DNA from: Cyanophora paradoxa CCMP329
Taxonomy: Eukaryota; Plantae; Glaucophyta
Assembly (NCBI GenBank): GCA_004431415.1
Contig: QPMI01000029.1
Span: forward strand, 124,001-188,000
DNA: 64,000 nt
Direction of reading: 5' to 3'
Below, piece by piece: positions 36,947-64,000 of this stretch. The notes under the pieces are model-generated. The model saw only the letters and a list, made by a program, of their open reading frames with translations. It had not been told where the DNA came from and ran no database searches. Both the position numbers and the translations under genes were made by a program. Every line of letters begins with the position of its first letter. The stretch's first letter is position 1.

Positions 36947-37141
36947 TATACTAAGTATTTCCCGACTTACTGAAGTTACAGTATACCGTATATATATAAT
37001 TATAAGTTTGGTTTTTGGTGAATTACCGGCCAGCGGGTGGCAGCGCGCAACGGCCAGCGCGCGCCAGCGCCGGCCACATGCATACTATTAAATATTACTG
37101 TCAGTTCATTATGTTATATAATTAGACGGATTCTTATTATA

Positions 37142-42700: not shown

Positions 42701-44533
42701 ATGGCCTGAAACAAACAAATAAGCAAGCACCAGCTCGTCCGAATCCATTCACACAGACCCCGCACAATTGCCCTTCGTATCCGTTGTTGCACTTGGACAC
42801 GTAGGGACTTTCTGTATCCACTAGGAATGCCAGCAGGTTCCGTCGCGCAGCTGCAGTACAAAGGGAAGTATTCTGACCTCCAGCTCCACTCGAATCCGAC
42901 GCGTTTCGAGGACACGTGTCGTTAGAAAGTAAAAACGTGCTTGAGCTCACGATCGAGGCTGGTGGCAAGCCCCCGAGACAGCTCTCCTTTCCGTTCAGAC
43001 ACTCTATGAAAACGTTCGGGTCGTATGTGCTCTGGAACCAGCCCCTGCAGATATATATCAGCACGTAGAAAAACAATTGCTGCCGGCGTCGCAAGCTTAA
43101 GCTTGCGAACAGAACACTGGCATACTCTTTTGCGTAAAGTTTTGCGCCGCCATCGCAAATGGCGCCTTCAGGGCATCGACGGCAAGCCGCGTCCTGCGGG
43201 TTGAGGCTGTAGAAATTGGGCCCACTGCGAAAGGACAGCTTTTAAAACATGTGTTGTAAAGAAGAACGCTTCACAATTCGAACGAACCACTCGCTGCAAA
43301 TCCTGGCCGCCTTGTCGAGGATTTCGCCAGGAATGCACTCTCGCAGGAAGACAGAGAGCGGGGCCGGTTGCAGCGGCCGATCCGCGACCGAGAAGCTCAG
43401 ATTGTACGCCGCGCCCGGCATCTCGATTAGGCGGACGTCAGAGAGAAAGGCAACGCCGTTCAGCGTGGCGTTTGTAGTCGTTCCTGTGTACATGCGATCG
43501 CGAGTTGAGTCAGACATCAGCTTGTTAAGCATCGAGACGCTTAAGGCTTGTACGCGACGCGCACCTGTCAACGAGGTCGATGTGCTCGTTGTTGAGATTT
43601 GAATGAACGATCCAGAATCCGCCACGATGGAACTGCATGATTATCTTCAGGATTCGGCAAGAGAGATCTTTAATTTGCACGTGCACGAACCCGTAGGCAT
43701 CCTTCATCGTCACCTCGAAAACAATGGACTTGCCGCTCGCTACGTCAACGGGCTGGGACCGAAGCTCCGGCACGATGCGTTCGGTCGGCGTGGCGCATGC
43801 GGAGCCGTATGCCGCCGCGTTCTCCGAGTAGGCGGTGCACGCATGTGAAGAGAATCCCGTGCACACGGAGAGGTCCGGTGTGTTTACGTACACTCCGCCC
43901 CCGCCGACTTGAGCGCGGTTCATGAGGACAGAAGAATTCGATAACGACGCGCCGCCGCACGCGTCTTTCTCAATAAACAGTCCGGCGCCAAGCGATGCTG
44001 CGTTTTGCCTTACTGCGATGGAGTCTAGGCTCATGTTGCCTCGTTTGACGAACACGGCTCCTCCTCTCACTGCAGTGTTGTTCAAGAGCGTGCAGAAGGT
44101 CAGCTTCAATACTGCACTGCTCGCGGCATGCACTCCCCCGCCCTCAGCTGCGCCCTTCATTCAATACTTCGCCCCGGTGCAGGTTTCGGGGGCCATGGCC
44201 ACTCACTCGCGGTATTCGCCTCCAGCAAAGTCTCGTGCAAGAACAGCTGCCCGTCGGCCTCCGTCCCAACTGCGCCTCCCCGGCCCCGAGCCGCATTCTC
44301 CTTCAGGGTCGATGCCGAAATCCAGACCGAAGAGTGTCCGGCGGCGTACACTCCCGCAGCGTCCCCTACAGCCGCCTGCCCCTCCAACAGCGTCGGAAAA
44401 CCTGCACGATTTCCGGTAATGCTGCTGCCGTCGATTCGAACCGCTGCGTGTCGGTCTGCTGCAACGCCGCCCCCCGACACTCCAGCGACGCAGGCCGAAA
44501 CGCTTGATCGAGAAAGCAGCAGATGCACGCGGT
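39738..44533 (-). CDS. Polymorphic-membrane-protein/pectin-lyase-repeat, Cys-rich, multi-pass membrane protein; 5' part cut off by the viral insertion
   Basis: N.A..GG(A/G)V beta-helix repeats (ENAARGRGGAV, NNTAVRGGAVFV, NRAQVGGGGVY). LRECIPGE, CRRCPEGAICDGG, CNNGYEGQLCGVC. Several TM exons (IVLVFFFQPMII, YGVGVPAGTAVFLW, FSFLY, LILHMRIQP). The reading frame is open up to the junction at 44,533. Confidence 0.8.
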
Positions 44534-44816
44534 ACACATAGTAAAATGCGGAGTTTTAACCCTCGGCTTATCTTAATTGATTTTGTTGATATATCTCGTA
44601 TATTCTATTTCAATCAATCGATAATCTGTGTATATCTTATCGAATATTCATTTATTTCGATTATTTTGTATTCTTTTCGATATTTTATCGTAAATTTCTC
44701 TTATTTTCCGATTAGTCTTACTGAGTCTATCGATAATCTGTATATATTTCCGAATAATATAACTGAATTTCAATTAGATCTTGCCTCTGGTTAAAACTCC
44801 GCATTTTACTATGTGT
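44534..44816. repeat. Terminal hairpin: perfect 28-bp inverted repeat closing a ~227-bp imperfect AT-rich palindrome
   Basis: ACACATAGTAAAATGCGGAGTTTTAACC (44,534-44,561) is the reverse complement of 44,789-44,816; the inner arms keep pairing with many mismatches. Confidence 0.95.
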
Positions 44817-45058
44817 GATTGGTCTGTTTGTTTAATTCTTTTAATCGATATTATATTCATGTACTTTCTCGATTAAATTTAATTAAATTTAATTCATTTA
44901 ATCGGAAATATATCGCTAAACTCGATTAAGATCCATAAATGATTCATTTGTTAAATAAAATAAATCGATCTCTTATTGAATTCAATCGTAATTATACATG
45001 AAATTGATATGTTTTTATCATGTTTTAATGATTCTAAGGGGGGACCCTTAGAAAATTG

Positions 45059-45402
45059 GGTGTCACAGGTGTCACAGGTGTCACAGGTCAATCCCAAACT
45101 TTTGATAGTTGATTTTTATATATGTGAAAACTTTGGGATAGACCTGTGACACCTGTGAACAACACCATTTATGGTAAGATCCTCTTTTATAATGAAAAAC
45201 TCAGTAACAATAAGTAAGAAGTTTATCTATGTAATTCTACTTGAATAAACAAATGAAATAATCGAGTGTCACAGGTGTCACAGGTCCATCCCAAACTTTT
45301 GAGAGTTCATTTTTATGCTATAGAAAACTTTGGGATAGACCTGTGACACCTGTGACACAAACCATATTCAGTAAGGACCTCATATATTGTGAAAATCTCA
45401 GT
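45059..45402. promoter_or_regulatory. Two tandem copies of an iteron palindrome (GTGTCACAG)2-3 - AT spacer - (CTGTGACAC)2; putative replication origin
   Basis: Copies at 45,059-45,158 and 45,266-45,358 within a ~200-bp tandem unit; third copy at 62,036-62,152. Confidence 0.7.
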
Positions 45403-45789
45403 GTTAGTTGGTGTAGTTGATTCAAAAAATGCATTTTATACTCTGATTCATTGTTATTTCCTGTGAAATTTGAGTCAACTCAACCCACTTAGTCAACCCT
45501 TGCATTGAATTCGTAACAAAATCCATATACTATCGATTAATATGAGTCAACCTTGAGTCCACTTTAATTATAGGGGGAATCTAGGGCAGATGCTGAGGTT
45601 TTAGTGTAAGGAAATCGAATAGTATTCGAAATACTTGACATTGCTTAATGTAGGGTGCATTCATATTTCGGCTATATCATACAGTATAATTTCTATCGTA
45701 AAGAATGACCGGAATCCGGAAAATAATCATTGTATAAAGCTATTGTAATAAAAAAGGTAAATTACCCTGTTTATCATTATAGAAACTCA

Positions 45790-46188
45790 TCAAAACGGGA
45801 ATCTATCATGTTTATGTCTCTCAGTCTTCTCAAATGTTAAGAAATTCATTGTTTTATCGATCTCATCAGCAACTGATTGTGTTTTATGCTGAGCTTCTTT
45901 ACCACAACTGAATATATCAATTGCTAACATGCCTTCATTGGAATAACAATGAGCTGTGCAATGGCTTTCATCTAACAGCAGAACCAAAGCAAAACCAGGA
46001 GGTGATAGTTTGCCATCAAATATCTCACAATGCTTATGAACAATCCTAATACCTTGTCTCAATACTGCTTGTTCAAGGGTTCCCATAATCCAATTACCTA
46101 GGAAGCTAACATGCTCATAACCTGTTGCTATAGCTGATTTAGCCTTGTAATCAAGCATAACATGAAAGCCTCTGTATTTAGTCTCCAT
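45790..46188 (-). CDS. speD: S-adenosylmethionine decarboxylase proenzyme (prokaryotic class 1B type, pyruvoyl-dependent) or neofunctionalised homolog
   Basis: 132 aa; G.H.MLD, GF..VLLLDESHCTAH (E|S autocleavage motif), LAIDIFSCG. Confidence 0.85.
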   Translation of the reverse strand: METKYRGFHVMLDYKAKSAIATGYEHVSFLGNWIMGTLEQAVLRQGIRIVHKHCEIFDGKLSPPGFALVLLLDESHCTAHCYSNEGMLAIDIFSCGKEAQHKTQSVADEIDKTMNFLTFEKTERHKHDRFPF

Positions 46189-46211
46189 TAAGAATACCTT
46201 AGAAAAATTAA

Positions 46212-46484
46212 CTAGTCAAACCTAATGCAAATATCCCTATACTCTACTCTGATTGATGAAGTAGCTCTTTTCCTGTGTGCTTGACTCTTTCTTTTGTTAC
46301 AGTCCCTACACCCTGATCCCTTCACATGATTAAAGGGATAGGTAAGGATCACTTTATTACACTGCAAACATCTCACAGATACTTTCTCTTGAGCTTTGAT
46401 GTAATGTGTCTCACTGTAATCGAATTTATCTTTACCATGAACTGTCATAGCAGCATCAATAAACTTTTTTGTTTTACTATCCAT
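46212..46484 (-). CDS. DUF723-like zinc-binding protein (repeat typical of viral homing-endonuclease-like proteins)
   Basis: FI..A..VHG.DKFDYS...Y..AQEKVSVRC..C.......NHVKGSGCRDC. Confidence 0.7.
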   Translation of the reverse strand: MDSKTKKFIDAAMTVHGKDKFDYSETHYIKAQEKVSVRCLQCNKVILTYPFNHVKGSGCRDCNKRKSQAHRKRATSSIRVEYRDICIRFD

Positions 46485-46506
46485 ACTCTATATATAATCA
46501 ATATTC

Positions 46507-47340
46507 TTATGGAGCAGTATCCTGTCCAAAAATGGGGAAATATCGATTTGTGCCATAATACTCAGCATAGGTATTCTGCCTTGCAATAAAATCGGTTCTC
46601 TCAGCATATAATACACACTTGTAGATACCAAACTTGGTGGCTCTAACCAGAAACTGATAATCTTCCAAACCAAAATTGACTCCATGATAAGCAATTCCGA
46701 AATTATCATATGGGGTGATCACAACAGCAAAATTAGGAGTTCCACCCTCTACTTGACATACAGCATATACATCTGGTGGGATATCCACAACTACCTTGTA
46801 GTGGTCACCAATTTCAACAAGAGAGTCTACTACTGCTGTTTGTTCATTTACAACAATGGGGAATATCTTTATAATGTATGGGGCATTCATGCTGGGGACA
46901 TAGGTTCGAATTCTTGTGTTAGGATCAATGGGATTGGGTTGATCATTCACAAATAGAGGCGCTCCAACAGCCCCACCAACCCTAAGACCATCACCAATAT
47001 AAGCTCCCCCCGATTTGCAGTTAATAGCTCCCGACCTAGATTCAAAAGAATAAGTAGACAGAGGATCTCCATAGCTATCTGGGTCTCCATAATGAGCAGA
47101 GAAGTTTGCATTGGTAACAAGTAGCTTAGTTGTCTTAACTATTCCATTATTTTTATCACATCTGAGTTCCTGTAATCTCAGTTTATGGGTGGAACCAAAG
47201 GTGTTCATTGTAGGTTGGACCTCTGTTGATTGGAGACCCTCTACATCATCAAAAGTAGCATGCTGCAGAACATGGTTTGCTGGTGCAGCTAATGATAGCT
47301 GAGGTGTAATAATTCGTTCAAGTGGGGGTTGCTCAGCCAT
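46507..47340 (-). CDS. Putative virion fibre/spike protein, paralog A
   Basis: 277 aa; shaft-like GGAYIGDGLRVGG; C-terminal VITPYDNFGIAY...YKCVLYAERTD resembles head domains of viral fibre-like proteins; clearly similar to the next ORF. Confidence 0.55.
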   Translation of the reverse strand: MAEQPPLERIITPQLSLAAPANHVLQHATFDDVEGLQSTEVQPTMNTFGSTHKLRLQELRCDKNNGIVKTTKLLVTNANFSAHYGDPDSYGDPLSTYSFESRSGAINCKSGGAYIGDGLRVGGAVGAPLFVNDQPNPIDPNTRIRTYVPSMNAPYIIKIFPIVVNEQTAVVDSLVEIGDHYKVVVDIPPDVYAVCQVEGGTPNFAVVITPYDNFGIAYHGVNFGLEDYQFLVRATKFGIYKCVLYAERTDFIARQNTYAEYYGTNRYFPIFGQDTAP

Positions 47341-47363
47341 TTTACATTAAAGGGATATATCTT

Positions 47364-48218
47364 TTATGGGGTCGGGTCATCAATAATATCTGGCTCCGCA
47401 TAGAATCCGGTTGTGAAGATATCAGCAACATTTACCCCACGAAGTGCTGATACAGCTGCTATATCTGTTCTCAGTCCCATAATCATAGTATTGTATACTC
47501 CAACCTCAGTGACAAACAGATCATAGGTAAATGTCAAATTGTTATAAACACAATATCCTCTGCCAAAATGGTTCGAAGCTTGAACAAAGAATAAGTAGTT
47601 GTGTCCTGGTTGATTATTATTGGCTCTACACATGGAAAGCATTGCAGTGGGAAGAGGAATATTTCTTCTTACTCGATCAGTTCCTGTAATGGAAACTAAT
47701 TCCGAATTCTCAAGAGTTACAGAGGATGCAACATAGAAATGCAAAAAAGGTTGCTGTGCAACAGGTGTGTAGAAACGAATTCGTTGTGGGTTCTCCACAT
47801 TTTGTTCGAGAGTATCTGGGACATCATTGTAGGAAACAGATGAAGATAGCTGACCTGAAACTCTGCAGCCACCACCAATAAATGCTCCTCCTGATCTCAC
47901 AGTTACAGCAGCAGTGTTTTTATCATAATCAAGGGCTTTCAGATCAACACTGTAAGCATCAGGACCTCCATTAGTAGGCTGAAAGAAGTTAGCATTTGTG
48001 ACAAGAAGTCGAGTTGTTTTAACCACACCAGAATTCTTATCAGCTCTCAGCTCTTTAACTCGAATAATCGAATTTTTATCAAAGGAGTTGCCATTGGAAT
48101 TGGGTCTCTCTGTGGATTCTAAACCACGAACCTCATCATTTACTTCATGCTGGCGAAAATGCATTGCAGGGGATCCAAGGGAATATATAGGCAGTTGAAC
48201 TCGATTATATTCACCCAT
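47364..48218 (-). CDS. Putative virion fibre/spike protein, paralog B
   Basis: Shares ELR.DKN.G.VKTT.LLVTNANF and SGGA.IG.G.RV.G with paralog A; HFGRGY...YNTMIMGLRTD. ATG at 48,218 follows a TAAAAG motif. Confidence 0.55.
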   Translation of the reverse strand: MGEYNRVQLPIYSLGSPAMHFRQHEVNDEVRGLESTERPNSNGNSFDKNSIIRVKELRADKNSGVVKTTRLLVTNANFFQPTNGGPDAYSVDLKALDYDKNTAAVTVRSGGAFIGGGCRVSGQLSSSVSYNDVPDTLEQNVENPQRIRFYTPVAQQPFLHFYVASSVTLENSELVSITGTDRVRRNIPLPTAMLSMCRANNNQPGHNYLFFVQASNHFGRGYCVYNNLTFTYDLFVTEVGVYNTMIMGLRTDIAAVSALRGVNVADIFTTGFYAEPDIIDDPTP

Positions 48219-48257
48219 TGCTTCTTTTACTAAGAAGGAAAGAAAAATAAACTGCAA

Positions 48258-48563
48258 TCAAGCCAAAGTGATTAAATTCGATCCAAGGGATTGGTAAACA
48301 GTTGAAAGAACTTGCAGGTTGGACGTCATTGCTTTAATGTTGTTATCACACTCATTGTATTTAGCAACAGGGTCACCATATGCAGCTTGAGCAAGGACAT
48401 TAACCAAGAGGTTTTTATACTCATTTACAACTGGTGAGAGCTTGTTAGTTTGCTGAATCGTTTTTTCAACTGTTTGTAATGCGTTTACAAGGGTGATTGT
48501 ATCAAAAGAAAGTGCAACAGGCTCAGTAGAATAGGTGGTTCCACCAAGAGGATAGGTCGCCAT
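48258..48563 (-). CDS. Hypothetical helical protein (101 aa)
   Basis: Intact ORF packed directly against the upstream gene; no recognised motif. Confidence 0.6.
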   Translation of the reverse strand: MATYPLGGTTYSTEPVALSFDTITLVNALQTVEKTIQQTNKLSPVVNEYKNLLVNVLAQAAYGDPVAKYNECDNNIKAMTSNLQVLSTVYQSLGSNLITLA

Positions 48564-51500
48564 TTATAATACTGTGATATTTTTAATTTGGTCTATTTGA
48601 CTTTGGAGATTCTCACAGGTTTGTGTTAAATCTTTGCATTTTTGGGATAACTCCTTCACTGCTTCAATGAGAACCGGAATTAAACCTGTGTATGCAAGGG
48701 TCAAATAATTTTCGTGATTTTTACCTACTACTTCTGGTATGACTTTTTCGACATCTTGCGCAATCAAACCTAAGTTTACTTTCTGTTTTCCATCACCAAT
48801 CTTTTTGTAACTCACACCCTGTAATTTCTCAATTGCTGAAAGGGCGCCGGTTATATTTTTAATGTCGGTTTTGTATCTTCTATCACTTCCTTGTGTAAGC
48901 CATCCCAAAAGTAAACGTCACCATTATTATAAAAAGCTTGCATTGTTATATCATTTCCTGCTCTAAAATGGATCATTTCGTAACCATAACCTTTAATGTA
49001 TGTAGTTGATGATGAACCGAAATAAACTCTCCCATTACCTTCATCTGATGTTATCCAAGTTCCGGTTGCCCAAGTTGTGCGAGCATCTTTACTATATACA
49101 TTATCCCAACTGATCATACCATTTGCTGGTGAGGTTCTCCCTTTTTCTTTCGTCCATCCAACCATACCAATATAACATCTCCCTTTTCTTGCAACAAATC
49201 TAACATGTGAGAAATAATCACAAGCAAAAGAAGCCCACGCCAAACCATCGTGATAATCTGTGGTTCCATAATTTGAGACAGTCTGATAAGTATTAACTCG
49301 CATAATGTGGAACCATCGACCTGCTCGATAGCCTCCAATATCGAAATATCGACAATTCGACCAACACAAATATTGAACATGACATGTTTGCATATTTGCT
49401 GGGACTTCAATTTGCGCCCAGTCTCCACTTGTTGAATCACCTTCAACGATACTATAAAATCCATCCACAGGATTAGAAACAGAAGCTGTCCAACCTGTCC
49501 CCCAAGAACCACTAAATGATAGACCACCACTACCTGTTCCACTCCAAGTATCAAAACCTATAATGTTTCCAACTAAATTTGTTGTTAGTAGATTTGGTTT
49601 ACTATAAATGTTATCCCAAGAAACATAGCCTGTGTGACCACCATAACTACTTCCTGTCCAAGTGCGAGTAAATCCAATGCCCATTATGTGAACTCTTCCT
49701 ACCTTTGGAATAATACGAAGGCGAATAAAGCGATTTCCCAACATAATAGGGACATTTTGTAAACCATTGTGGTTTCCATCTGGTGCGCTTTCATATTGAT
49801 GATAACTATTCACTCTTGCAATGAAAACCGCATTACCTTGTCTATTGATTCCCCAAATCTCAAAGTAACGACAATTTACCCAAGGGAGATATGTTAAGTG
49901 GGCTGTTCCCGTATATAAATCAGTGGGTATTGTGTAATCAACCCATGAGCCGTTAACAACAGTATCGCCACTCTCATTATTGTAAGCATACCCACCGTAA
50001 TTATAGTAGGGTTCCCATGCTGTTCCACCTTCAAAACCCCAACCTCCTGCATAATTATGTGGCGAATTTCCTGCTACCGAAGCATCATACTCTACACATC
50101 TAGGCATTGTTTTGTCGCCAAATTTATAATTTGTAGTTGCATTTATTGAACCTCCGTAAATGATTGTTCCGCTTATAGTCGGAGCGGACACAGTATTAGT
50201 AACTGCAAGGTTGCCGTTTTCATATGATTGTAAAATTGTAGCATCTGCTGAGTTTCTGAATACAACACACGCATTATCGTTATTAGGTCTACCTCGAATA
50301 TATGTAGCATTTGCATTTGCAAAATAGAACCGCTCGTAGTTATCTGTTGATTTTAACCATGTATTAATTGCCCATGTTGCCGTTCCTGGAAGGTCTGCGG
50401 CTGTAATTAATGCCGGACGACTGTAAATATTATCCCAACTTATCAAACCATTCGCTGGCGCTGTTCTACCTACTTCTTTTGTCCATCCAAGCATTCCAAT
50501 GTGAGTTCGTCCTTTCTTTGCGAAAATTCCAATATATGAGAAACTCCCACAAAATACGGATGTCCATAATAAACTCGAATGCCACAGTGTGTCGGCGGTG
50601 TTTTGAATATTTTGATATGTATTAACTCTCATAATATAATTCCATCGTCCATTGCGGTATCCCTGAATATCGAAATATCGCCCATTCGACCAACATAAAT
50701 ATTGAATGTGACATGTTTTCATTCCTGCTGGAACTGCACACTGCATATACCCATCGCCGCTTGCATCGTCTGTTTGGTTGCAATAAAAACCCTCTACTGG
50801 GTTATCTGTTGTGGGTTTCCATCCTGTTGTCCAAGCGCCGGATTGGAATGATACACCTGCGCTATTCCAACCACTCACCACATCAAAATCGGAATATTTG
50901 CCGACAGGATTAAAAGCGATATTATCATAATGAATTAATCCAACATCATTATCGGTTGCTCTTTGTCTACTCCAACCAAATACACCCGTAAAATAAATGC
51001 GACCTTTCACACCTTTTACCACAATCTTTTTATAGAAATCACAGTTTATAGAAGTATAGATAATAGCATTATAGGTACCATCTTGAATTCCGCTATCTTG
51101 TATTGCTTGATAGTGATTAACACGTTTTAAGAAATGCTGATATCCATTAACAGTTTCACCGTAAATATCGAAATATCTACAATTATGCCAATTTAAAAGT
51201 TGAATATAAAACGATTTCATGCCTTCTGGAATTGTCCAACGCATCCAACAACCCGTAACATCTGCGTCATTCTCAGGTGTGGTGTAACATCCTGTTTGTC
51301 CCGTTCTATGTCCTGTCCAATTAACATTCCAATTATTTGCGCTTCTATCTGTCGAAACCACATCTAATTGGTCGAAATCATAACCTTTTGGTATTGTGGT
51401 TCCACCAATTTGTAGAGTGGTAGCATTCACAGTTCCTGTGACAGTTCCACCTGTAAGAGGCAAATAGTTTGCAAGAGCTGTTGTTAACTCTGCATCAGTT

Positions 51501-54500
51501 GTATAACTGCTTAAATCTGCAGAGGTAAGATACCCTTTATTGGTAAGGTAATCATCTGTGACCACACCTGAAAGGGTGGTATTGTGTAAGTTTTTTGCTG
51601 CCATCCTCTGATTGACTTCTAAGGCTCCACCTGATGTCGTTTTTATCCATGCAATCTCACATTTCCCATGATCATCTGTGGGTTGTCCTGCTACAGGAAG
51701 GTAGTTTACAACTTTCTCCCTTGTGAACACAATTTTAGGTCTTGCTCCATCATATGCGCTTTGATCTGTAACGTTTATTTGAATAGCTGCTGAAAAATCG
51801 GCTACTTGTCCTGTTTCACCTGGGTGATAATTCGTAACATAGATACTGGGGAAAGTATCATTTACTCCTACATTGAAATCACCATCATAAACTCCATTTA
51901 CAATTGGATCCCTGGGTAATCTTACTGCAAGAGTTCCCTCCATTGGAGTGCCTGTTTGACCTGTAAAAGTCCCATTGAGACTAACATAATGATCATTCAA
52001 ATGCAATCTTTCAGGTGTATTACTCGATTGGTAAAGTGTGACTCCATTGAAAACATTTCCGATTGCATTCAACTGTGCAAACACTGGTTGTTGATCGATT
52101 TCACTCCAAGGGTGTCTGTGATTGCAGTTGGTGATCTGGGAATAATCATGACTGTGTGGATCAGGTGGAAAGGTTAATGGTGGATTTGTTATATGCTCCC
52201 ATAAATGCTCATGAGAACTGGGTGGGAAGGTTAATGGTGGATTTGTTATATGCTCCCATAAATGCTCATGTGCAAAATCTGTTATTTCATCTTTTGTGTG
52301 GGTGTGGTTATCGATCCAACCTAAAACTACATTGGATGTAGGATGATTTGGTAGATTCGCTTCAATATTCACAGTCAAATAGTCGACTTCTAGATTACTT
52401 CCATAAATATTACTTGCCCATAGGTTACTTGTGAAAATGTTACTTGTATAAAGGTTACTGGTGTAGATATTGGAAGTGACTGTAAGGTTTGTGTCATTTT
52501 TGATCACAAAAAGAGAAAGAATATTTGTGAGTTCACCTTCATCAATATATCCTTGATCTTCTAGATAATCCTCTGTGACCACTCTCGAAATATTTTCATT
52601 GTGTATGTTTTTTGCAGCCATCCTCTGATTGGCTTCCAGAACCCCACCATAATCTGTTTTAATCCATGCAAGCTCTGCCCTTCCATAATTATCATTTGCA
52701 GTTCCCACTATGGGAATGTAGGAATACTTATCTCGACTGAAAACTATCATTGGTCTTGAGCCATCTAAGCTGCTTACATCTGCTACATGAACCTGTATAG
52801 CAGAGTTGTAATTTTGGTAGGTTGCTGGGTCTGTTGGGACTCTGAATGTATCTGTGGGAATGTCAGCCTCCATGTAGCTTGACACAAAGATATTTGGTAT
52901 GGTTGCTCCTGGTGGTGGTGGGGTTTCAAAAGAGCCTGGTAATGTCCTAATATGAAGTGGTCCTCTCATAGCTGAATTTGCAAGTGTCCCATTCACATGT
53001 ACATAGTGTTCATTCAAAAAGATTCTTTCTGGGACATTACAAGTCTGATAAAGAGAAACCCCCAAGTTATCAAGAGGCTCTACCTTTGCGAATTCTGGTT
53101 GGTCATTGATCTCATCCCAAGTATGTTCATGTTTGCTTGGTGGGAACTCAGTAGGTATCCCATCAATTTCTCCCCAATCATGCCTGTGATCCTCTGGTGG
53201 ATACTTTTGAGGTTTGCCTAAGATCTCATCCCAATCATGATTGTGATCCTCTGGGGGATACTTTGCAGGTTTATTATTAATTTGTTCATAATCAGGGAAG
53301 AACTCCAGATCTCAGGTCGAAATCCATCTGGTAACAATTCCTCATGGGTTCATAAGGTTGCTCATAGTCAACAGCTGGTGGATCATGACCATCTGGTAAA
53401 TACTCCTCATCAGGTTCATAGTTCTGTTCATACTCATATTCTTGTGGGTCAAAACCATCTGGGAGTATCTCCTCCTCATTGGGTCAAACTGATCATACTC
53501 ATATTCTTGTGGGTCGAAACCATCTGGTAAATACTCTTCCTCATCTGGAACGAATTGATATTCATCAAGCTCTAATATATCGACTTCAGGAGGTAAATAC
53601 TGCTCATCTATTTGCTTTCTGGGTTCAATTATAGTTTATTGCGAACTTGCTCCCAACTAACAATATGCTGCCAAAGGCTACATCTTCAGTTGCTGTGTAT
53701 TCTCTTCCAGGCTGTTTCTTTGGTGTTAAATCGGAGGTCCATTTGGAAATGGAATAGGGAATGGAACTGTTGGTCCATTGGGACCATAATGCTCAATTAT
53801 TTCCCTTAGAGTTTTCTCACTCACAAGTTTCTCCCCATTTGCATACACATTGCTGCCATGGATATTTCGCCATTGCCTGGTTCTAATTCCAAGGTCTTTC
53901 ACATTGCTATACAAAGGCAAAAGGTGCCTATCCATTTCGACTAAATCAGGATGTAAATGGATTGCTACTGGTTGACTGGGGCTACTGTTGATTGTAATTG
54001 ATGGCTTTTTTTGATGGACATCTTTTGGAGTAAAAAACCCAAAAGGCTCATTCCTCGCAAAGTCATATGTAATATCCTTGGGGTATACATCATTTGTGTA
54101 GGAGACCTGATTTGTGTTGGCAATGGGACCCACTTGCAATACTTGGGGGACCTCAGCTTTTGCAGTGCTGCCCTCATTGTAAATTCGCAAAGCTGTGTTC
54201 TGTTTGCCCTGCTCATCTTGAACATTGAAAATCAATCGACCACTATCGAACCTGGAAGGTATATCTGGGTGAGTGCCACTGGTTTTTAGTTTCCTAGGTC
54301 TCCTTCTTGTTGCTTTGATCTCTGCCACTTGGTTTGCTTTCACATTACCCAAACTAAAAGCAACACTGACATCCTCTTTATTTGGATCAGTTTGATTCAC
54401 AGATAAAGCATGCTCCCTTGATTGAGTCTTTGAAGAATTATCAGAGCTGTGGTCAATTGAAACTGAACCCTTTACTTTAATATTATCAAAGTTCACATGC

Positions 54501-54562
54501 TTGGTGCTGCTTGCATTATCATCTTGAATGGTTTCTAGATTGGGTGGGTAATTGAAGCTCAT
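48564..54562 (-). CDS. Giant (~2,000 aa) phage-type tail-fibre protein with C-terminal peptidase S74 intramolecular chaperone; split by several 1-bp indels
   Basis: ORF 53,726-54,562, acidic LPDGFDP repeats (53.1-53.6 kb), ORF 48,851-53,065 and ORF 48,564-48,908 join by single-base corrections. HxHxWxxIxxxP tail-fibre repeats; YLPLTGGTVTG; S74 signature SDRRYKTDIKNI...GLIAQDVEKVIPEVV...YTGLIPVLIEAVKEL plus coiled coil. Confidence 0.82.
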
Positions 54563-54605
54563 GGCTTTTACTATATGGATTTATAAAATTCCTGATAAGT
54601 AAAAG

Positions 54606-56160
54606 ATGCCTCTCAGGGTTTGTTTAAGTCTTTCTGGCGGGGGTGCAAGGGGCATTATCATAACCAGGCTGCTCAAAGAAATCGAAAATCGAACTGGCAG
54701 AAGAATAATCGATCTTGTGGATCTTGTAAGTGGAACTTCCACTGGTGGGATCATTGCAATAGGTTTGAATATCAGGCATCCTGATAAACCAGGTGAACCT
54801 AAACTGACAGCAAACGATCTACACAATATTTACCTAGCTCAACTGCCCTTGATTTTTGCAAATCCTCGAAATATAATCGAAAATGCCCTTTTTAATACAA
54901 AGTATGATGTGGGACCCTTGGAGACTGCAATCAATTCAGTTACTGGTGAATCACTAATACAGGATTCCCTAAAGGACATTGTGATTACATCCTTTGATAC
55001 TCAGAATATGAAACCAATATTTATCACAAATGACAACAACTACAACTTTATGCCTTGTAAGATTGCTGCTAGGGCTACTTCTGCTGCTCCTACATATTTC
55101 TCTCCTGTAAGCATTGTTGATTTCAATCGGGGAGTATTTGTCTGTCTCATTGATGGTGCCATTTCGGGAAACAATAATCCCAGTGTGTGTGGTTACAGCC
55201 ATGCAAAGAAGATTTACAGTGATGATGATGATATTATAGTAATAAGTATCTCTTGTGGTGAGGTGGACCCACATTTAGAGTCTGATTATGTGGGTTATGC
55301 TTATGAGACTGTCAACAGCTGGGGAATTCTCTCATGGATTGCCTCAACAGATGGAAGCCCATTGATTAACATGCTCATGGCTGCAAGTGAGCTTTCTGCC
55401 CTTGATAAGATGGAGGAGTTGTTACCCTACAACTATGATCAGGATTATGGGAGATACTATAGGCTGTCAGTGCCTCTTCCAAATCATATAGTAAGCTCCC
55501 TTGATGACACTTCTAAGATCCCAGATATGCTAGCATTCACTGAAAGCTACATAGCAGCAAACAATGATATGATTAATAAGCTTTGCAGCCTTCTAGTAGC
55601 AAACTATGAACTTAAGAACCCTACAAAGGCTTACATCTCATCCACTCTCACTACATCACCTCCTTTGGATGCTAATTGGTATCAGCTTGCAGATGATGCC
55701 TTTACTGCCTCATCCTCTGTGACAGGTAAAGAGCCTTTCATGGCAAGACCTTCAGCATTTGGCTGGGAAGCTGGAGCCTTTGCTCCTGAACAGATATGGG
55801 AAACCCCCACTGAATACCTTCAAGTTGCTTTCCCATATACTTTTGAACTCTCCTCTGTGATTGCCTATGGATCAGGGACACCAATGCTTTTATTAAGACT
55901 TTCAATGTGGCAACATCCACTGATGGATCAACTGGTCTTTTATTCGATCAGATGGGCAAAACAAAATATATGTCTGTGAGAACATTAACAATGCTCACAA
56001 CTCTGGTGATGTGGCTCTATTGAGTGGATTTCCTCTAAGCATCAAGGATGCTTTTTACATAGGTTTCTCTCTCAGAATCAAATATATTCGCATTTATCCC
56101 CTTGTGTATGTGAATGCTCCCACAATGAGAGTTGATTTCACAGGTGCCTTTATTCGATAA
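54606..56160 (+). CDS. Patatin-like phospholipase with C-terminal F5/8 type C (discoidin)-like domain (frameshifted near 55,880)
   Basis: GGGARG, GTSTG, ARATSAAPTYF, LIDGA; then FTASSS...W.A...EYLQV...V..YG; after the shifts ATSTDG and IKYIRIYP.....MRVDFTG. Confidence 0.85.
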
Positions 56161-57081
56161 ACTCCAACTGAAAAGAATTATCGATTCCATTCATATCAAT
56201 CAGTTCACCAAAGTAATCTTTAAACTCAACTGTGAGTTCCCTTATCACCAGGTTTCTGTCATTTATCTGAATGAATTCTGCATGCTCACCACTATGGTAA
56301 ACATAGCCACCTATATCTTTACTCAATTGCAATCTAAGGATAGCTCCCTGGTTATGTGGTTGCGATTTCGGAATTATATTGTGTCTGCTGGCAAAAGGGG
56401 CAAGCTCTTTAATATGCATGTACAGATACTGCTCAGCATTCATATCAGACATCTTATTACTGGTGAAATAGTACTGCAAGGGCTTTGAGGAGAGTCTGGG
56501 TCCTGAGAAGGTGATTCCCCATGCTGGGTGATCAGGTGTAATAGGTTTACCATCATACTTTAAAAGGTTCTCAGGTCGATATGGAGATCCACCAACAGGA
56601 GGAGTGCTATAATACCCAGTGGTGTATTCAGTAGAACTTACACCCAAAAGCTTCCCTATTCGCTTGTTGCTTGCAATAAAACGAAACTCATGATTACTGT
56701 AAAACTCCACTTTATAGGTTGTTGGGTTGTAGAATATTTTGAACTCAAAAGCTACTGTTTTGCCTGCAATTGTTTGGAAGCTTGAATAGTTCAGCCCATA
56801 ATTATAAGGGTGTGTGACCCCAAAATGACCCTGATTGATGTAGCCACTGGGAAGGGATACACTTGTTGTGTGATCACTTGGTTATATGAACCATCTTGGT
56901 AGTTAAAATCAACTGTTAAATGATCAGTTCCCACACTGTTATAGATACTGTTTGGAATCTCTGCATAGAGAACCCTGCATTCTCTTGGTCTCTCTACTGG
57001 AGTTGTGAGGGTGACCCTGTAAGAGTTTTCATTTTGTCCTTGGCTTCTATCTCTGCTATCAATATTAACAAGTCGATTCAT
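56150..57081 (-). CDS. Minor capsid (penton-type single jelly roll) protein 1, frameshifted near 56,800
   Basis: VNIDSRDR...YRVTL...AEIPNSIYN at the N-terminus; YLYMHIKEL and LTVEFKDYFGELIDMNGIDNSFQLEF at the C-terminus. Confidence 0.78.
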
Positions 57082-57110
57082 TTTAATATATAAATATAGA
57101 TAAAAGAAGA

Positions 57111-58120
57111 ATGCCTGTGGATTACATCGAGGTTAGCTCATTTAATACAATCTCTGGTGATGGTCCCACATCAAGCTTTGTGGCTCGACTTCCCAGTACT
57201 TATGAGAATGTGAGGGCTGTGAGACTGGTCTCAGCCGAATTTTATAACAGTATCCCTATGGTGAGTGGTGAAACCAAAGCAGGAGATGTGACAGTTGACA
57301 ATGCATTTAGCATTTATTATTCTGAACAAACTCCTGGAGCTGGAAGCTCAGGAATTCCAACAGTTCGCCCAGCTGCTGACTATGAACAATGGAAACAATT
57401 CATTATAAGTCGAAACACCCCCATCCAAAGCCACCAGCAACTGGTGAATGTAATTAACTCTAAATTCGAAGGCAGAAATCCCCAACCATCCATTCGCTGC
57501 AAATGGATGAATCACTGAAACGAATTATATTCCACTCAGCAGTACCATTTTACTTGGCTTTCTCAGTAGCTGTGAACCCAAGCCAACAAACAATCCAAAA
57601 GCTGTTGAGTTCAGCTAGACTGCTTGGTCTTGATCCTGGAAGATATGGCAATTCCTCAATCCAATCCCAAGTTTATGATGCTCTCACTGATGGAATCTTT
57701 ACTGGTGGTCGCGTGAATGGCATTATATCTTCTTTTGAGCCTGAGAAGACCAGGGACAGTGTTTTGTTTGTGAGAGTAAAGGAGCTGGGTGATCTGGTGC
57801 AATGTGGGGATGGTCTTCTGACTGGTTACTTTCACAAAATAGTGGTCCCTGATAAAGACTATGGTGAGCATGTTGTTTACAATTCAACAGAAGCTCACCC
57901 ACTTTACAAATACTATAATAAGAAGGTTGGATTATCCACTTTTTCGGTTGATATTGTAAATGCTGTTAATGAACCAGTTGATTTTGAGGGTCAACCTGTT
58001 CATCTGACCTTTGAAATTCGCTATGGTGATGAGCCAGCAGGAGACCCAGTTTATGAATACTTTAAGATGAGAATGTCGCAGCTTCACCCTTCCTATCCAG
58101 TTATTACAAGCTTCGCATAA
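57111..58120 (+). CDS. Minor capsid (penton-type) protein 2, frameshifted near 57,510
   Basis: IEVSS...FVARLPSTYENVRAVRLVSAEFYN; LFVRVKEL; FSVDIVNAVNEPVDFEGQPVHLTFEI. Confidence 0.72.
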
Positions 58121-58173
58121 ATTAAGGATCATTGGTAGATTTTTTATGTTGCAGTATAATAAAAGAGAATATA

Positions 58174-59540
58174 ATGGATATCACTTCCACTCTTCAAAGA
58201 CTTTCGCTGAAAGAAGCCCTAACAACCCCAGAGGAGGCGAAAGCCTTTTTCCTGGATAACTCCCTTATGCTTGGTCTCGAATCCAAGTCTAAGCCAGTTC
58301 TTGTTGTTGTGAATCCCAGCAATACTTTTGAGAATAATGTAGGAAATCGCATTTCCTTCAAGCTACCTCGCTACAATTTCTGTGGAAAACTCGAACTTGC
58401 TTTCGACCTTCCTGCCATCACTTTTGCTGGTGATACTGATCTGGTTCGCAATGGATACACTCGACCAGTTGGTGCTTTAGTTCAGCGACTTGAAATTACC
58501 TATGGATCTTACACCTACCATATTCCATCTGATTTCCTTGCTCATTTCCCCCTGGTCTATTATTCGGAGGATCAACTAGCTAAAAAGAAACGCTCAATGG
58601 GCATGGTTCATGGTATCCCTGCTCATGGAACTAACCGACTTGGTGGCTCATTTTTCGTTGAAATCCCAGTGCCTTGGCTAAATCACTACCTTCCCTTGGT
58701 GCTTTATCTGGTGAAATGGTTGTTACTGTTTGGTTTAAGGATGCTGGTAAGGGTTATGTTGAAACTTCCTATGGTGGTCGCTCTCTCCCTGTTGTTGGTG
58801 GGACAGTTGCTGATAAGACAGAAGATGATGGTCTTGGTGATACTGCTAATGCTACACTTGCCCATGTTGGTCAAAACATCACCACTTTCAGTCTTGGTGC
58901 AACAACCCCTGTCATTTCTATTACTTCTCCTCGCCTTTACATGCATGCTATCAATGTTTCTGATGAGCTTTTCGCTACTGTAATTGAAAAAGTAAAGACT
59001 ACTGCATGGCTATTCCCTCCCTTGATATTGGATTTGTAGATGCTAGTGCTTTCCCTGCCAAGGGCAATGCCCAACCCAATCGAATTAACCTCTCTCAAAT
59101 CTCAGGTCTTGTATACGCTCTGCTTGTTCAGTTCGTGATCATGAAACTGTTGACAAATCCAATGGCTCCCACAGTGTTCTTAAGACCTATGCTAACTCCA
59201 AAGAGATAACATTCACAACTGAAATAAATGGACAGCGACTTTTTGCCACTGAGCAATTTCCCTACTCAAAGGTGCTGAGCTAATTGCTGATGCCTTCAAA
59301 TGCTCTAACATGGATAAGGTTGCTGATCGCTATGTCCTTTCAGGATTGCCTTTCTGCCTTGATGGAGAAAAGGCGATTCGAAATATTGCCCAGTCTGGTT
59401 ATGTTGATTTAACAAATTCCTCCTCTTCATTCCTCACCCTCTACATGCCTTCAGATAAGGTAATCGATGTTAATGTTCGCGCTCTCATGCATAGCTTTAT
59501 TATTGTCGACAAAGATGGTCTGAGACGTATCAATCTTTAA
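58174..59540 (+). CDS. Major capsid protein, double jelly roll, NCLDV-like; several frameshifts
   Basis: GNRISFKLPR...LELAFDLP...GALVQRLEITYG; FVEIPVPW...LPLGAL..EMVVTVWF; PRLY; PFCLD...SGYVDLT...VNVRALMHSFIIVDKDG; ~455 codons, between the minor capsid and ATPase genes. Confidence 0.82.
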
Positions 59541-60370
59541 ATGTTACCATTTTCAGTCTCCCTGCATTATTTTTATCTGTCTTTATTTAGGAAGATCTAC
59601 AACAATGACTATACCAGTTCTGATCTGGATGAATTTGTGGCTGGTGAAATGATAGAACCCCCTTTCAGACTACTCATACTAGGTAAAAGTGGATGCGGAA
59701 AAACTGAAGCCGTAAAATATTATTTGAAACAGCTGCATGATGCCAAAAAGATTGATACAACCCTTATTATATCCGCTACCTCATTCTCACATTTCTGGGA
59801 CAAAGCTGCTACTGTTCAACTGGGTGCATGGGATCCCCAATACATGTCGAAAATTATAAAAGAAAGAGAGGCAAAAAGGGAGAAAGGAGAAGAACTTAAC
59901 CATATGCTGGTGATTTTAGAGGATATGATAGAAAATGACCAGCTGGATCTCAGTCGAGATAAAACAGTTGGAATGCTTTATGTTCGTGGCAGACATGTGA
60001 ATATATCAATTATAACTATCTCTCAGAAATTACGAAAGGTTGCAAGTGTAATTCGCTGCAATAGTGATATAGTAATTATGGTTTGTGCAAGCAATCAAAA
60101 AGAGCTGGAAGCATTTGCAGAGGAGTTTTCAACTTTTCCTCGCAAAGAAGATTTCTATCAACTGTTTGAAGAGTATGTCACTCATATCAATTCCTTGTTA
60201 TACATCTTTCAAGTATAATGTGGCTACTATGTGATAAAGCCGATTTAGTTGGAGATTTCGATTTTCCTCGCTTCCACAGGAAGCCCAAGAAGAAAGAAGA
60301 TGAACTGAAACCACCAGAAAAAGAGGAAGCCCCTAAAGAAGTGAAAAGCCAAGTCCATAGCAATAAATTG
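59541..60370 (+). CDS. A32-like (FtsK/HerA superfamily) genome packaging ATPase; start and end affected by frameshifts
   Basis: Walker A GKSGCGKT, Walker B LVILEDM, A32 motifs RGRHVNISIITISQ and IRCNSD. Confidence 0.92.
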
Positions 60371-60422
60371 ATGCGATATAAACGCGGTTTATAAAATTAT
60401 CTCTCATTCTAATAAAGATACA

Positions 60423-61042
60423 ATGCCTCCAAACGAAAGATAGGGATCCCAGCTGGGGCTGTTGGCTATTCAGGTGGTGGAAACAATGGATCCATTAATA
60501 CTGAACCAATGAAATTCAATGGTATGAATGAGGTGAAGCCCTCACAGCAAGAAGAGGACCTCTTAATGCTGCCTATGAGAATCAGTCGATGACAAAGCCC
60601 CACAGGCTTCAACCAGTGACCAACTCAACATCTCACCAGAAGCTTCGAAAATGAAAGCTGTTGCTGAGGGTGCCAGGCGAATATTGGTGCTGCTGATGAT
60701 AAAGGTTTAGGCTTGCAAGATCTATCACTGGCTCGCAAAGGTGAAGGTCTTAGTAAGGAATCAGACAAGGTAATCCAGTCTATGGCTGGTGAAGTCACAT
60801 ATAAGACTGCTCCCACTCAAAATATTCATCGAATTCCAAAGGCTCAATGGGATGAGATGACTGCTAAACTCAAAGATCTGGAAGCCAAATCAAGTGCCTT
60901 GGAGCAGTATGTTACTGAGAAGAAAGAGAGATCCAAGCTAAAGGAGATGCTTCGAAAGGAAGTTTATAAAATGGGCATTACTGGTGTCCCAGATAAACAG
61001 TTTATTGCTAAAAAGAGAACCAAATTGATGAGCAGGCAGTAG
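60423..61042 (+). CDS. Hypothetical viral protein with coiled-coil C-terminus (fragmented)
   Basis: ATG after TAATAAAG at 60,423; ORF 60,713-61,042 is the intact 3' portion. Confidence 0.4.
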
Positions 61043-62035
61043 ATGAAATGAAAACAAAGACCCAGAAGGGAACTATTGAACCTGGTGCCACAAAGCTGAA
61101 GTCGAAAAGGAGTAGCCCCAACAGTATATAAAAGACGAGTTTGGCTTTAATTTTCTCTGTTTTATTAGAGACATGGATATAATACGAAAGTTATTGAGAT
61201 GCTCAGTCTGCATGTGGTGAGCAATTGCCACAGTGGATGCTGTGACACAACAATAGAGTTTGAGATGTCAGATACTGAGGATAATGTATCTGAAGCAGAG
61301 AGAGAAGGAGATCAACAGTTTCAGTGGAGTCAATGCCAGCAGACCCACAGAGTATACATATGAGCAACAGGAGTATCCAAGGAGAAGTTCTTTACAGCGA
61401 AAACGTTTTCTCAGCAAATATTAATGGAGGATACAATTAGTTTGATCGAGTTTACTAGTGATGACCTTTAACTGAGGGTGCTATTAGACACATTCTAGCA
61501 AAGCAGAAACGATATAGAGAGACCCAGCATATAGAGAGTATAAGAAACAACAAGCCCTGGCATCCTATTATCGCAGAAAAGCCCAAAAAGAGAGCAGAGA
61601 CCCAGAGGGAGACCGATTAAATATTATTTGCCAACTGAAAGTAGCAATGGACCCCAGGTCTATAAGATAATTGAGAAAAGCGGTCTCAGTATGCAACTGA
61701 GGCAGCTATAAAATATATACAAAGGAATTGGCTTTATACTTGCAATCAAGTCACAGATAACTTTGTAAATATGCTTTTGTTGTTTTTTGTTTGCATTCTC
61801 AGACACTGAAACAGTTATGTGAATGTTTACTGATCTATTTCTCTTTGGTTTGTTGCATACATATTGTAACCTTTTAATCTCTGTGACATTTCGATATATG
61901 CCCTATATCTCCATGCTTTATGCATTTATCTAACTCAGTCATGGTCATCTCATCAAGAGTCTTTGCCATTTTGTCTTCACTATACACAATCAAGTAAGCC
62001 TTAAGTATTCTTGTCAAATTTTGGTCTTTTCGATC

Positions 62036-62152
62036 GGTGTCACAGGTGTCACAGGTGTACAGGTCTATCCCACCGATTTTCAAAATCATTTTTTATGTTG
62101 ACTTTCCTGGGATGGACCTGTGACACCTGTGAACAACACCATTTCAGTAAGG
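62036..62152. promoter_or_regulatory. Third iteron palindrome, immediately downstream of the D5 primase-helicase
   Basis: GGTGTCACAGGTGTCACAGGTGTACAGGTCTATCCCA...TGGGATGGACCTGTGACACCTGTGAACAACACCATTT, homologous to 45,059-45,170. Confidence 0.75.
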
Positions 62153-62199
62153 CTATAAACATTACATATACAAATCAATCATTATCGTTTGTTTAATAT

Positions 62200-64000
62200 T
62201 CACATCCTTCCATTGTCTTCTTGAACCCTTGTTATCTTTCGAAGTCCAATGTAGCCCTTGCTCTGGTTCCAGAATTCGTTTAACCTCTGATTTAACATTG
62301 AAGATTTCCCTTACTCTTTCATAACAGATACACATTCAACTTTATCATCTACACTTTGTATGATCTGTAAATGATATCATGGAAACAAAGTCGTTAGCAT
62401 TATGTGTAACCTCGAAATTATCTCGAAGCCATTCACCAATCTTGTCATTTTCAGCTATAAGTTAATTCCCTGTTCAATAATCGATTGAGGGGGACTTCTT
62501 AAGATCTCTTCAACCTCTTTGTTCTTCCACATATCCAGTAATATCTTCATGTGAGCCATCTTATACTCATCATCATTGTGAAGAAGTGTGAACAGAGTTG
62601 GATCAGCTTTCTCTGACCAGCTTCAGGCTTCTCTCTGAAATATTGTGATCTCTGGTATGAAAGTCTTCTTTGAATTGCGAAGTCTGGTTTATTAATAGTC
62701 AAATTGTCATTAGTTGTAATGTAGACCTGAAACATTGGGTAAGGATAACTGGATCTTTGAACAAGGCTCTCACAGTCATTTCATTTCCACCTGTGACCTC
62801 CTTAATCTTGGAGATCTGCAGTTTATCACCATCTTCAGCCTCATTACTGAATACAAGTCGCTTTCAAGGAGTTTGGCAAGTTCAGGAGTAGCCTCTGATG
62901 AGTTCTTTTTAGGCTTAGTCCAATAGGATATTTCGAGAGGGCTGTAATAACGACCAGATATCTGTTTGCAGTATTCCTGAACAAGTGATTTACCATTAGC
63001 ACCAGCACCAGTCCACATATAGAACTTCTGGGATTTAGTTGATCCACTAAGGGCAATTGCAATGGATGCCAGAAGATACTTTCGCTCTGCTGGATCATCC
63101 ACAATCTCTTTATAAATCTGATTTAGATGCTCTATTTTCTTGGGGTCTACATTTTCAGTATAGTCATAACCCACAGTCTTGCTCACCATATCTTCCAGTT
63201 TACCCTTTCTGAAAGTCATAGTGGTCAGATCAAATACACCATTTTCGAATCCAATCACATATGGAACAGTGTCAATCTTCTCAAAGAATTCATCATCATT
63301 CAGCAGTGGGACCAAGTCAGTCAGAAGGATTTGCGAAATCCTGATTGTTTAAGGTTTTGGCAATGGTCATCAATGTTTTGGATCTTTCTTCGAAAGTTGC
63401 TTTGTTTCCTCATCCTTTAAAGCTCTTTGACTATAATGCACAGCCCTTCCAAGGTATTGGGGGCAACAAGACGGCTTATATCTAGGTAAATCTTTAGGTT
63501 TGTGTCATCATGCTCCAAATCCCAGATCAGTATTGAGTTTGAACCATGACTTTTTGGAGTATCTCCATGTATGTTTAAGAACCTCTTTCATACTAAACTC
63601 ACATTCATAATGAGCGCCACCAGAACCAGCGGATTTATCTATAAGATTGAAGATATCAGATTGCATTCCAATGCAGATGAATCGTTTTTTGCAATTTCCA
63701 CTGTAGCTTGACACAATGTATTTGTTATCATCTCTTTAGCTTTCATAACATACCAGTTATTCGATTCATGTGAACCATTGCAGCATGGGCAATTGAGTCC
63801 CTTGTTAGCAGCATCAAAGTTAAAGCCAAGTTCAGTTTTAGAGATTATATTGGGATGCATAAATCCATACCACCAGCTCTTTGATAATATTGTTTTCCAG
63901 TTCATCATGTGAGGTAGCATTAGCAGTATACTCACTCTTATAGATGTAGTTATCTATTATCCACTTTTGAAGTCATCAGTAGGCTCATTGAAATCACAGG
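62200..64000 (-). CDS. D5-like primase-helicase (SF3), 5' part outside the window; multiple frameshifts
   Basis: D5_N (DTVPYVIGFENGVFDLTTMTFRKGKLEDMVSKTVGYDY), Walker A WTGAGANGKS, ATPELAKL, C-terminal KGYIGLR; upstream CPCC..SH zinc motif. Confidence 0.9.

Follow-up and report, generated by a model that had tools for sequence, protein, structure and literature searches.

What kind of DNA begins at position 44,534 of this stretch, and how would it replicate? The window, by which we mean the whole 64,000-nucleotide stretch of Cyanophora paradoxa CCMP329 analyzed here (contig QPMI01000029.1, positions 124,001 to 188,000), changes abruptly in composition at this point, and the first-pass annotation had read the DNA to its right as an endogenous small DNA virus with an unusual gene set, inserted into an exon of a host gene. 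We conclude with considerable confidence that the window holds the left 19.5 kb of an integrated copy of a multi-copy family of Polinton-like viruses (PLVs), likely in an exon of a host gene for a membrane protein. This explanation stands on junction k-mers in four sequencing runs, on multi-copy depth, on gene content and on the capsid fold, and the earlier reading as an endogenous small DNA virus was right. What is new here is a phage-type repeat signal, TGTCACAGG, as its likely origin of replication.

The GC content falls from 63% in the host part (1-44,533) to 39% in the element (44,534-64,000), and 44,533 is the best change point in GC (2.1-kb fit). The window is contained wholly or partly in 20 of the 24 short-read runs listed, 14 of them with at least half its words; all 24 runs carry a single organism code. 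Contigs of four short-read runs (2012, 2019, 2024 and 2024) were compared with it. Results showed that in all four runs contigs at host depth (41-114x) start near 43.1 kb and reach 44,559, and they align over this span with 0 mismatches and 0 gaps. As contigs are assembled from read k-mers, the k-mers of the junction are present in the reads; moreover, the contigs have no branch at 44,533, and therefore there is no common empty allele. The sharp GC-to-AT junction at 44,533/44,534 is thus confirmed by both the change point and the junction contigs.

We asked whether the junction could instead be an assembly chimera of host DNA with a free or contaminating virus. Such a chimera would be consistent with the lack of a read-level bridge with 31 bases on either side, short-read contigs being the basis of the comparison. 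Indeed, several points weigh against integration: the junction contigs extend 26 bases into the element when the bridging rule of the tool is 31 bases, the four runs carrying them may derive from one strain, and the right end, the target-site duplication, an integrase and the remainder of the host gene lie beyond the window data. On the contrary, the host-depth contigs of all four runs enter the element for these 26 bases unbranched, and the 4 flank bases common with another insertion fit chance sharing, as they equal the random expectation if insertion sites number in the tens to hundreds (assuming k = 31, which we take to be the k-mer size behind the short-read contigs). We consider a chimera very improbable. 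The integrated element occupies the rightmost 19.5 kb of the window, so it is at least 19.5 kb long; PLVs in the broad sense span 15-45 kb and carry terminal inverted repeats and an integrase.

The interrupted host gene is present as an intron-containing 3' part on the minus strand, cut at 44,533 (41,500-44,533, left limit approximate), delimited by its translations and with domains read from the sequence. Its product combines Gly-rich repeats of the beta-helix type with Cys-rich segments and with stretches predicted to cross the membrane. The gene pieces gave no Pfam match, and the label "membrane protein" is a prediction from the hydrophobic stretches. The minus-strand frame stays open for more than 100 codons from the junction, and the first 24 codons score like the four other scored Gly-rich repeats of the gene, a score reached in 0.29% of 8,354 stop-free control windows. 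Because a CAG acceptor is possible 74-77 nt inside this frame, insertion in an exon is probable rather than proven. The earlier claim of a cut exon in a membrane-protein gene therefore stands as to the open frame and the repeat match, while the insertion site is only probably exonic and the gene product has no Pfam match.

The first-pass annotation had been unable to match the gene combination to any described group. We looked for such a group in the literature; statements on published work here and below refer to the parts of each source that were covered. The nearest relative of the major capsid protein (MCP) of the window is P0001 (EP00741_Cyanophora_paradoxa_P015758), which the window pieces cover. 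PMC10120064 lists this MCP family for Cyanophora paradoxa in Tables S2 and S4, with P0001 itself as a Cyanophora MCP in Table S2 (HHpred iridovirus MCP, 98.5%). It is this viral protein, rather than any host gene, that points to C. paradoxa as the very likely host. The same source reports 366 Cyanophora MCPs in two clusters (272 + 94), left unnamed under the heading "Iterative HMM searches", and includes a 465-aa paralogue ~84% identical, as counted by eye, to the first 176 residues of the window protein. In addition, Table S6 of PMC12220804 (its row read by pairing 67 headers with 67 values) tallies 156 Glaucocystophyceae PLVs, of which 139 have Pox_A32, 97 match the mCP model of that study, 89 have a lipase/phospholipase, 66 PF02675, 40 D5_N, 37 S74, 85 rve and 49 pPolB, and none a protease or tyrosine recombinase. 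Matches to the virophage MCP number 0/156 and to the PLV MCP column 2/156; the ATPases match the PLV model in 107/156 and the model of nucleocytoplasmic large DNA viruses (NCLDVs) in 1/156. The text of PMC12220804 adds that 11 glaucophyte PLVs encode discoidin, either by itself or in fusion with patatin, and PMC8502044 describes MELD-virus-like contigs in C. paradoxa.

Because Table S6 and the supplements of PMC10120064 list these genes and MCPs, the "unusual gene set" was already known, and the claim of a combination without a described match does not hold. The element is one copy of the catalogued family, and neither its existence nor its gene set is news. It shares with the Cyanophora endogenous PLVs the MCP cluster, the A32 ATPase, the set of S-adenosylmethionine decarboxylase (AdoMetDC), phospholipase, S74 and D5_N, the absence of a protease match and the multi-copy state; its double jelly-roll MCP and A32-like ATPase also agree with PLVs in the broad sense. 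A point against this assignment is that Table S6 gives totals per gene and not co-occurrence in a single element. The window copy is of the D5 subtype, unlike the 49 family members with pPolB. Maverick/Polintons (Polintoviricetes) combine pPolB, rve and a cysteine protease; in the family tally these stand at 49, 85 and 0 of 156. As for the suggested new lineage, the family is catalogued already but still unnamed and unplaced: both papers count elements and, in the parts covered, neither name the group nor place it in a tree, and they describe no terminus or origin. A term search of the literature (open-licence PMC and bioRxiv) found no paper joining S-adenosylmethionine decarboxylase with Polinton-like.

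Single element contigs listed from the short-read runs reach 4-69 times host depth and carry many variants, so the element belongs to a multi-copy family, although this depth ratio is not equal to copy number. The numerous frame breaks in the element genes could mean that the window copy is a decayed relic with genuine frameshifts, and the CpG depletion of the core (observed/expected ratio, o/e, 0.17-0.46, versus 1.06 in the host) would agree with this, considering that C. paradoxa methylates young transposable elements and silenced genes (PMC12344493). On the contrary, all 12 of the indel rows listed (of 87) are one-base insertions in the short-read contigs beside an identical base, that is, single-base shortfalls of the window; 4 of the 12 coincide with frame breaks of the MCP, penton 2 and patatin, the penton 2 break being an insertion at 57,504. 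Moreover, the unique host flank is error-free, the terminal arms are intact, as is an open reading frame (ORF) of 1,372 aa, and PMC10120064 describes the same long-read error pattern as an artefact of multi-copy viral regions. A relic thus appears improbable, and we find it probable that the frameshifts of the element are assembly errors from long reads and that the family was recently active. Weighing against this, the short-read contigs pool all copies, so open frames are unproven for the window copy itself.

We then turned to the repeats that had been proposed as iteron origins. The element contains three origin-like palindromes in which converging 9-nt TGTCACAGG repeats flank an AT-rich spacer: A (45,060-45,160); B (45,266-45,358), which shares 82% identity with A across 137 nt; and C (62,037-62,135), which follows the stop codon of the last D5 fragment at a distance of ~30 bp. 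An 18-mer made of two TGTCACAGG units was searched as an exact match in IMG/VR, with a composition-matched permuted 18-mer as control. Results showed 30 loci, of which 11 lie outside ORFs of at least 250 aa but follow the 3' end of one at a distance of 9-318 bp. Family scans of 16 of the 47 nearby ORFs, including all 11 adjacent ones, revealed a VapE-like superfamily 3 (SF3) domain in 10 of these 11; the five other ORFs scanned were the D5 of L022 (622 bp away), one collagen and three without a family. For the permuted control, 11 loci were recovered; 9 fell within ORFs, 2 belonged to neither class, and 0/11 lay behind a helicase. Because the 18-mer lies behind an SF3 primase-helicase in 10/30 loci compared with 0/11 for the control, an origin of phage type is likely, and with moderate confidence we read the TGTCACAGG palindromes as putative helicase-binding origins of this type. 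The proposal of iteron origins is in this way supported by both the palindromes A-C and the IMG/VR comparison. A search for the converging-pair pattern found 6 IMG/VR loci, including 3 that follow VapE-like genes and were part of the 18-mer count.

Several results count against this reading. As many as 11 of the 30 loci lie inside ORFs, many of them in Gly-x-y-type repeats, and 8 fit neither class; the adjacent ORF of L018 has no family; and the VapE-like domain is a different SF3 subfamily from the D5_N type of the window. Some loci are also redundant, L001 and L018 being one contig and L012/L023 as well as L016/L019 being alike. The VapE/SF3 phage replicons resemble the element in carrying the identical 18-mer directly after the helicase gene, in several cases as a converging pair with a spacer in between, but they belong to prokaryote-type viruses with a VapE-like rather than a D5_N enzyme. 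The ten loci with the iteron behind VapE-like primase-helicases (L004, L008, L010, L013-L015, L017, L020, L021 and L027) range from 35 to 63% GC, and TGTCACAGG could mark the origins of a VapE-like phage replicon class. At L018, the same iteron palindrome stands at the end of an 828-aa ORF (3482-5965, plus strand), which matches no family in Pfam or PHROG and is a candidate divergent replication initiator. At L034, the iteron palindrome has no long ORF nearby.

For PLV primase-helicases, terminal repeats have been hypothesised as origins, with no sequence defined in the parts covered (PMC11296320). The entomopoxvirus-associated PLVs of that study share with the element a D5-type primase-helicase and terminal repeats proposed as origin; they differ in using a tyrosine recombinase and having a protease, neither of which is tallied in the glaucophyte family (0/156). 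A literature search (open-licence PMC and bioRxiv) found no paper joining Polinton-like with iteron.

Could replication start at the end of the element instead? The left terminus (44,534-44,816) is a 28-bp perfect inverted pair (44,534-44,561 and 44,789-44,816) around a 227-nt AT-rich loop, followed by AT-rich (22% GC) degenerate repeats (44,817-45,050) that are likely part of the terminal repeat. The terminal 28-mer has 2 matches in the window, with 0 expected by chance. In hairpin termini of the poxvirus and African swine fever virus type, the terminal loop is AT-rich, short and paired along almost all of its length. Here the folding energy is -15.4 kcal/mol for the loop by itself, versus -46.2 with the stem (fold z = -10.3 for the terminus); the end is thus a stem-loop, and of the hairpin terminus first proposed the perfect inverted pair stands while the long, weakly paired loop is not of poxvirus type. 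We also considered that the 283-bp end unit might be a separate miniature inverted-repeat transposable element. The AT-rich terminus (44,534-45,050) is CpG-enriched (o/e 2.17), with scattered TCGA-type words, opposite to the core. One AT-rich contig from the Joint Genome Institute (L031:2248-2267) matches the terminus exactly over 20 nt; it was rejected as a relative because its proteins are not similar to those of the window and a single match of this kind is close to the chance expectation.

According to a fold-back model, which has been proposed for Halocafeteria elements with rve and without pPolB, the terminal stem-loop would prime replication, and the 9-nt palindromes would be helicase-loading or vestigial sites. 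The position of a perfect inverted pair exactly at the element end, with its fold score, favors it, as does the report that in Halocafeteria terminal palindromes occur preferentially in PLVs and virophages without pPolB and with rve (10.64898/2026.07.28.741278). The Halocafeteria PLV subtype 4 and virophages indeed resemble the element in having a self-complementary end at the insertion site and a non-pPolB replication gene. Their palindromes are, however, 52 nt long, compared with 28-bp arms, a weakly paired 227-nt loop and separate internal iteron palindromes here; in addition, a gene of primase type is present in the element itself, and the iteron comparison ties the repeats to primase-helicases. 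Fold-back priming therefore seems rather unlikely as the main mechanism, although it is compatible with origins at the palindromes, the reading we prefer.

The MCP had been described as NCLDV-like rather than Polinton- or virophage-like, and we asked what its fold says about the placement of the element. A sequence search among 1.84 billion representatives gave six hits, namely P0001, one Logan protein (38%), three proteins from the European Nucleotide Archive (ENA; 27-30%) and a cadherin-repeat protein (P0003), which was dropped as spurious; a word-index search with the MCP alignment A1 recovered P0001 alone among 7,998 scored, and PDB sequence searches gave no match. Four ENA metagenome proteins (P0004, P0005, P0006 and P0008), on contigs of 1-12 kb, are distant MCP relatives at 24-30% identity, suggesting from sequence that the MCP lineage may exist outside Cyanophora. 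P0001 was modelled from a 12-row alignment (pLDDT 68, pTM 0.72) as a double jelly-roll, with the capsid of Paramecium bursaria chlorella virus 1 (PBCV-1) as first match in VIA-align (Z 30.7, root-mean-square deviation (rmsd) 3.1, 351 aligned). Faustovirus follows at Z 28.8 and Singapore grouper iridovirus (SGIV) at 27.3, most NCLDV capsids lie at 24-31 and PRD1 at 20.1. The virophages reach 15.6-16.3 (mavirus 16.3, with rmsd 5.0 and 359 aligned; Sputnik 15.9), so the model is not of the virophage type (Virophaviricetes); Foldseek agrees with this ranking. In ESM Atlas, Capsid_N / Capsid_NCLDV appears on 12-18% of the neighbours, at a recognition of 1773, below the guide of 2300. As modelled, the capsid fold is nearer to NCLDV than to virophage capsids.

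These results could place the element within the continuum of small viruses related to NCLDVs (Mriyavirus, Zora, Zephyr, Alpensee), or on a separate deep branch beside them, and not among ordinary PLVs of the Aquintoviricetes type. In favor of this are the scores of PBCV-1, faustovirus and SGIV, far over those of PRD1 and the virophages, the ESM Atlas neighbours within the limit given, the 2/156 family members in the PLV MCP column, and the scarcity of MCP hits, which included the protein itself and a spurious one. However, the PDB ranking cannot split PLVs from NCLDVs, because the 50 PDB entries listed contain no PLV or polinton capsid. Nor is an NCLDV-first best hit diagnostic, because catalogued endogenous MCPs of other protists (Ostreococcus, Reticulomyxa, Paulinella, Acanthamoeba and trichomonads in PMC10120064) also match PBCV-1, PoV or iridovirus first. 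Moreover, VLTF2/3, RuvC and HUH had no match in the element ORFs scanned, the right part lying outside the window, and the family ATPases match the PLV model in 107 cases against 1 for NCLDV. The Mriyaviricetes (Yaravirus, Gamadviridae; PMC11253617) and Zora/Zephyr share with the element a small genome, an NCLDV-like capsid fold and an SF3 helicase; mriyaviruses are characterized by VLTF2, VLTF3, RuvC and an HUH endonuclease, and they lack integration genes, when most of the glaucophyte family has rve. The NCLDV-related PLV groups (Zora, Zephyr, VC40 and Alpensee), recognized by MCP profile clustering and an ATPase tree together with Nucleocytoviricota, are described in 10.64898/2026.06.19.733378, the main text of which does not name Cyanophora. 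We regard this placement as doubtful. Of the claim on the MCP, the contrast with virophages holds; that with Polintons does not follow from best hits.

The remaining genes were characterized by a Pfam scan of 20 element ORF pieces and then 9 further proteins. From the left, the minus strand encodes an AdoMetDC (45,790-46,188, PF02675, 3.9e-11), a small Cys-rich protein resembling the zinc-binding part of phage endonucleases (46,212-46,484; phrog_681 and phrog_559, E ~1e-8 to 1e-9) and two paralogous genes of unassigned family (46,507-48,218; 277 and 284 aa, 33% identical) without a Pfam or PHROG match. A fibre-like protein follows (48,570-52,969, minus strand), with the 1,372-aa ORF and, in a shifted frame, a C-terminal Peptidase_S74 chaperone; the S74 match is strong (6.4e-18) and the phage tail matches of the ORF are weak (1.2e-5). 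The C-terminal cassette of the fibre (48,570-51,500) has a CpG o/e of 0.83, versus 0.17-0.46 in other gene segments, and a lower short-read depth, with contigs jumping between its internal repeats; it is likely a recently acquired variable receptor-binding module.

Next come a frameshifted acidic-repeat gene (~52,970-53,720), a 278-aa gene of unassigned family (53,726-54,562, minus strand) and a patatin-like phospholipase (54,606-56,157, plus strand, PF01734, 1.2e-20) with a frameshifted C-terminal extension, which we take to be a putative discoidin from motif patterns. Putative penton 1 (56,150-57,081, minus strand, three frame pieces) and putative penton 2 (57,111-58,120, plus strand, two frame pieces) were presumptively named from motif patterns in the same way. 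These three assignments, which the first-pass annotation had also made, gave no match in Pfam, PHROG or PDB. The double jelly-roll MCP itself (58,174-59,540, plus strand) consists of five frame pieces 44-67% identical to P0001 and is followed by the A32-like packaging ATPase (59,541-60,218, plus strand; PF04665, Pox_A32, 3e-13; ESM Atlas). The D5/P4-type SF3 primase-helicase (62,162-64,000, minus strand, several frame pieces, D5_N 1.4e-9) has its 5' end past the window; its piece matches PHROG primases and 62 phage records, mostly annotated as DNA primase among the 12 matches listed. The Pfam matches thus confirm the ATPase, primase-helicase, AdoMetDC and patatin, and the MCP is confirmed by its pieces covering P0001 and by the P0001 model. 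In agreement with the earlier observation, the element ORFs scanned (Pfam, PHROG) gave no match to an integrase, pPolB, protease or VLTF in the window, past which the element runs. IMG/VR scans with the MCP, the ATPase, the D5 piece and P0008 gave no confirmed relative, and in a word-index search with the ATPase 0/218 candidates held up.

Elsewhere in the window, a lower-GC, repeat-rich region (~35,200-39,100) looks like a transposon remnant; its long frames on the minus strand (37,258-39,076) are skewed towards purines, and the region gave no Pfam match. Host genes include a member of the RNA 3'-terminal phosphate cyclase family (26,251-28,711, plus strand) and a PAS-domain protein (33,797-34,501, minus strand).

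How might the element work as a whole? An rve integrase encoded past the window would quite probably have integrated it, since 85 of the 156 family members have rve and none a tyrosine recombinase. We lean towards a D5 subtype that would use a phage-type replicon in place of pPolB, the alternative of the family. The D5/P4-type SF3 primase-helicase would bind the converging TGTCACAGG repeats, melt the AT-rich spacer and prime host polymerases; one origin would travel directly behind the D5 gene, with two more near the terminus. After excision, replication from the palindromes could possibly be helped by the terminal stem-loop. By analogy with what is known of such families, the A32 ATPase would package the copies, the capsid being built of double jelly-roll proteins and pentons and bearing a fibre chaperoned by S74; fibre and patatin would serve in entry, the latter at the membrane, and the AdoMetDC would likely feed polyamine synthesis. 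Between rounds, methylation may silence the element, as the CpG depletion of its core relative to the host would suggest.

More tentatively, the D5-type glaucophyte PLVs could be an unnamed deep lineage combining a giant-virus-like capsid with a bacteriophage-type replicon, in which the primase-helicase and the TGTCACAGG palindrome would form one cassette, conserved letter for letter between phages and eukaryotes, with the origin copied into the terminal repeat. If true, this would be the first sequence-defined replication origin for a PLV without pPolB, and it would explain the swaps of replication modules within one family.

In conclusion, this family is the virus lineage residing in a glaucophyte that is a key model, and it apparently disrupts host genes. 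For the start of replication in PLVs without pPolB, the literature covered offers hypotheses, namely origins in the terminal repeats or priming by a hairpin; with a 9-nt iteron palindrome that is linked to SF3 primase-helicases, the origin question becomes concretely testable.

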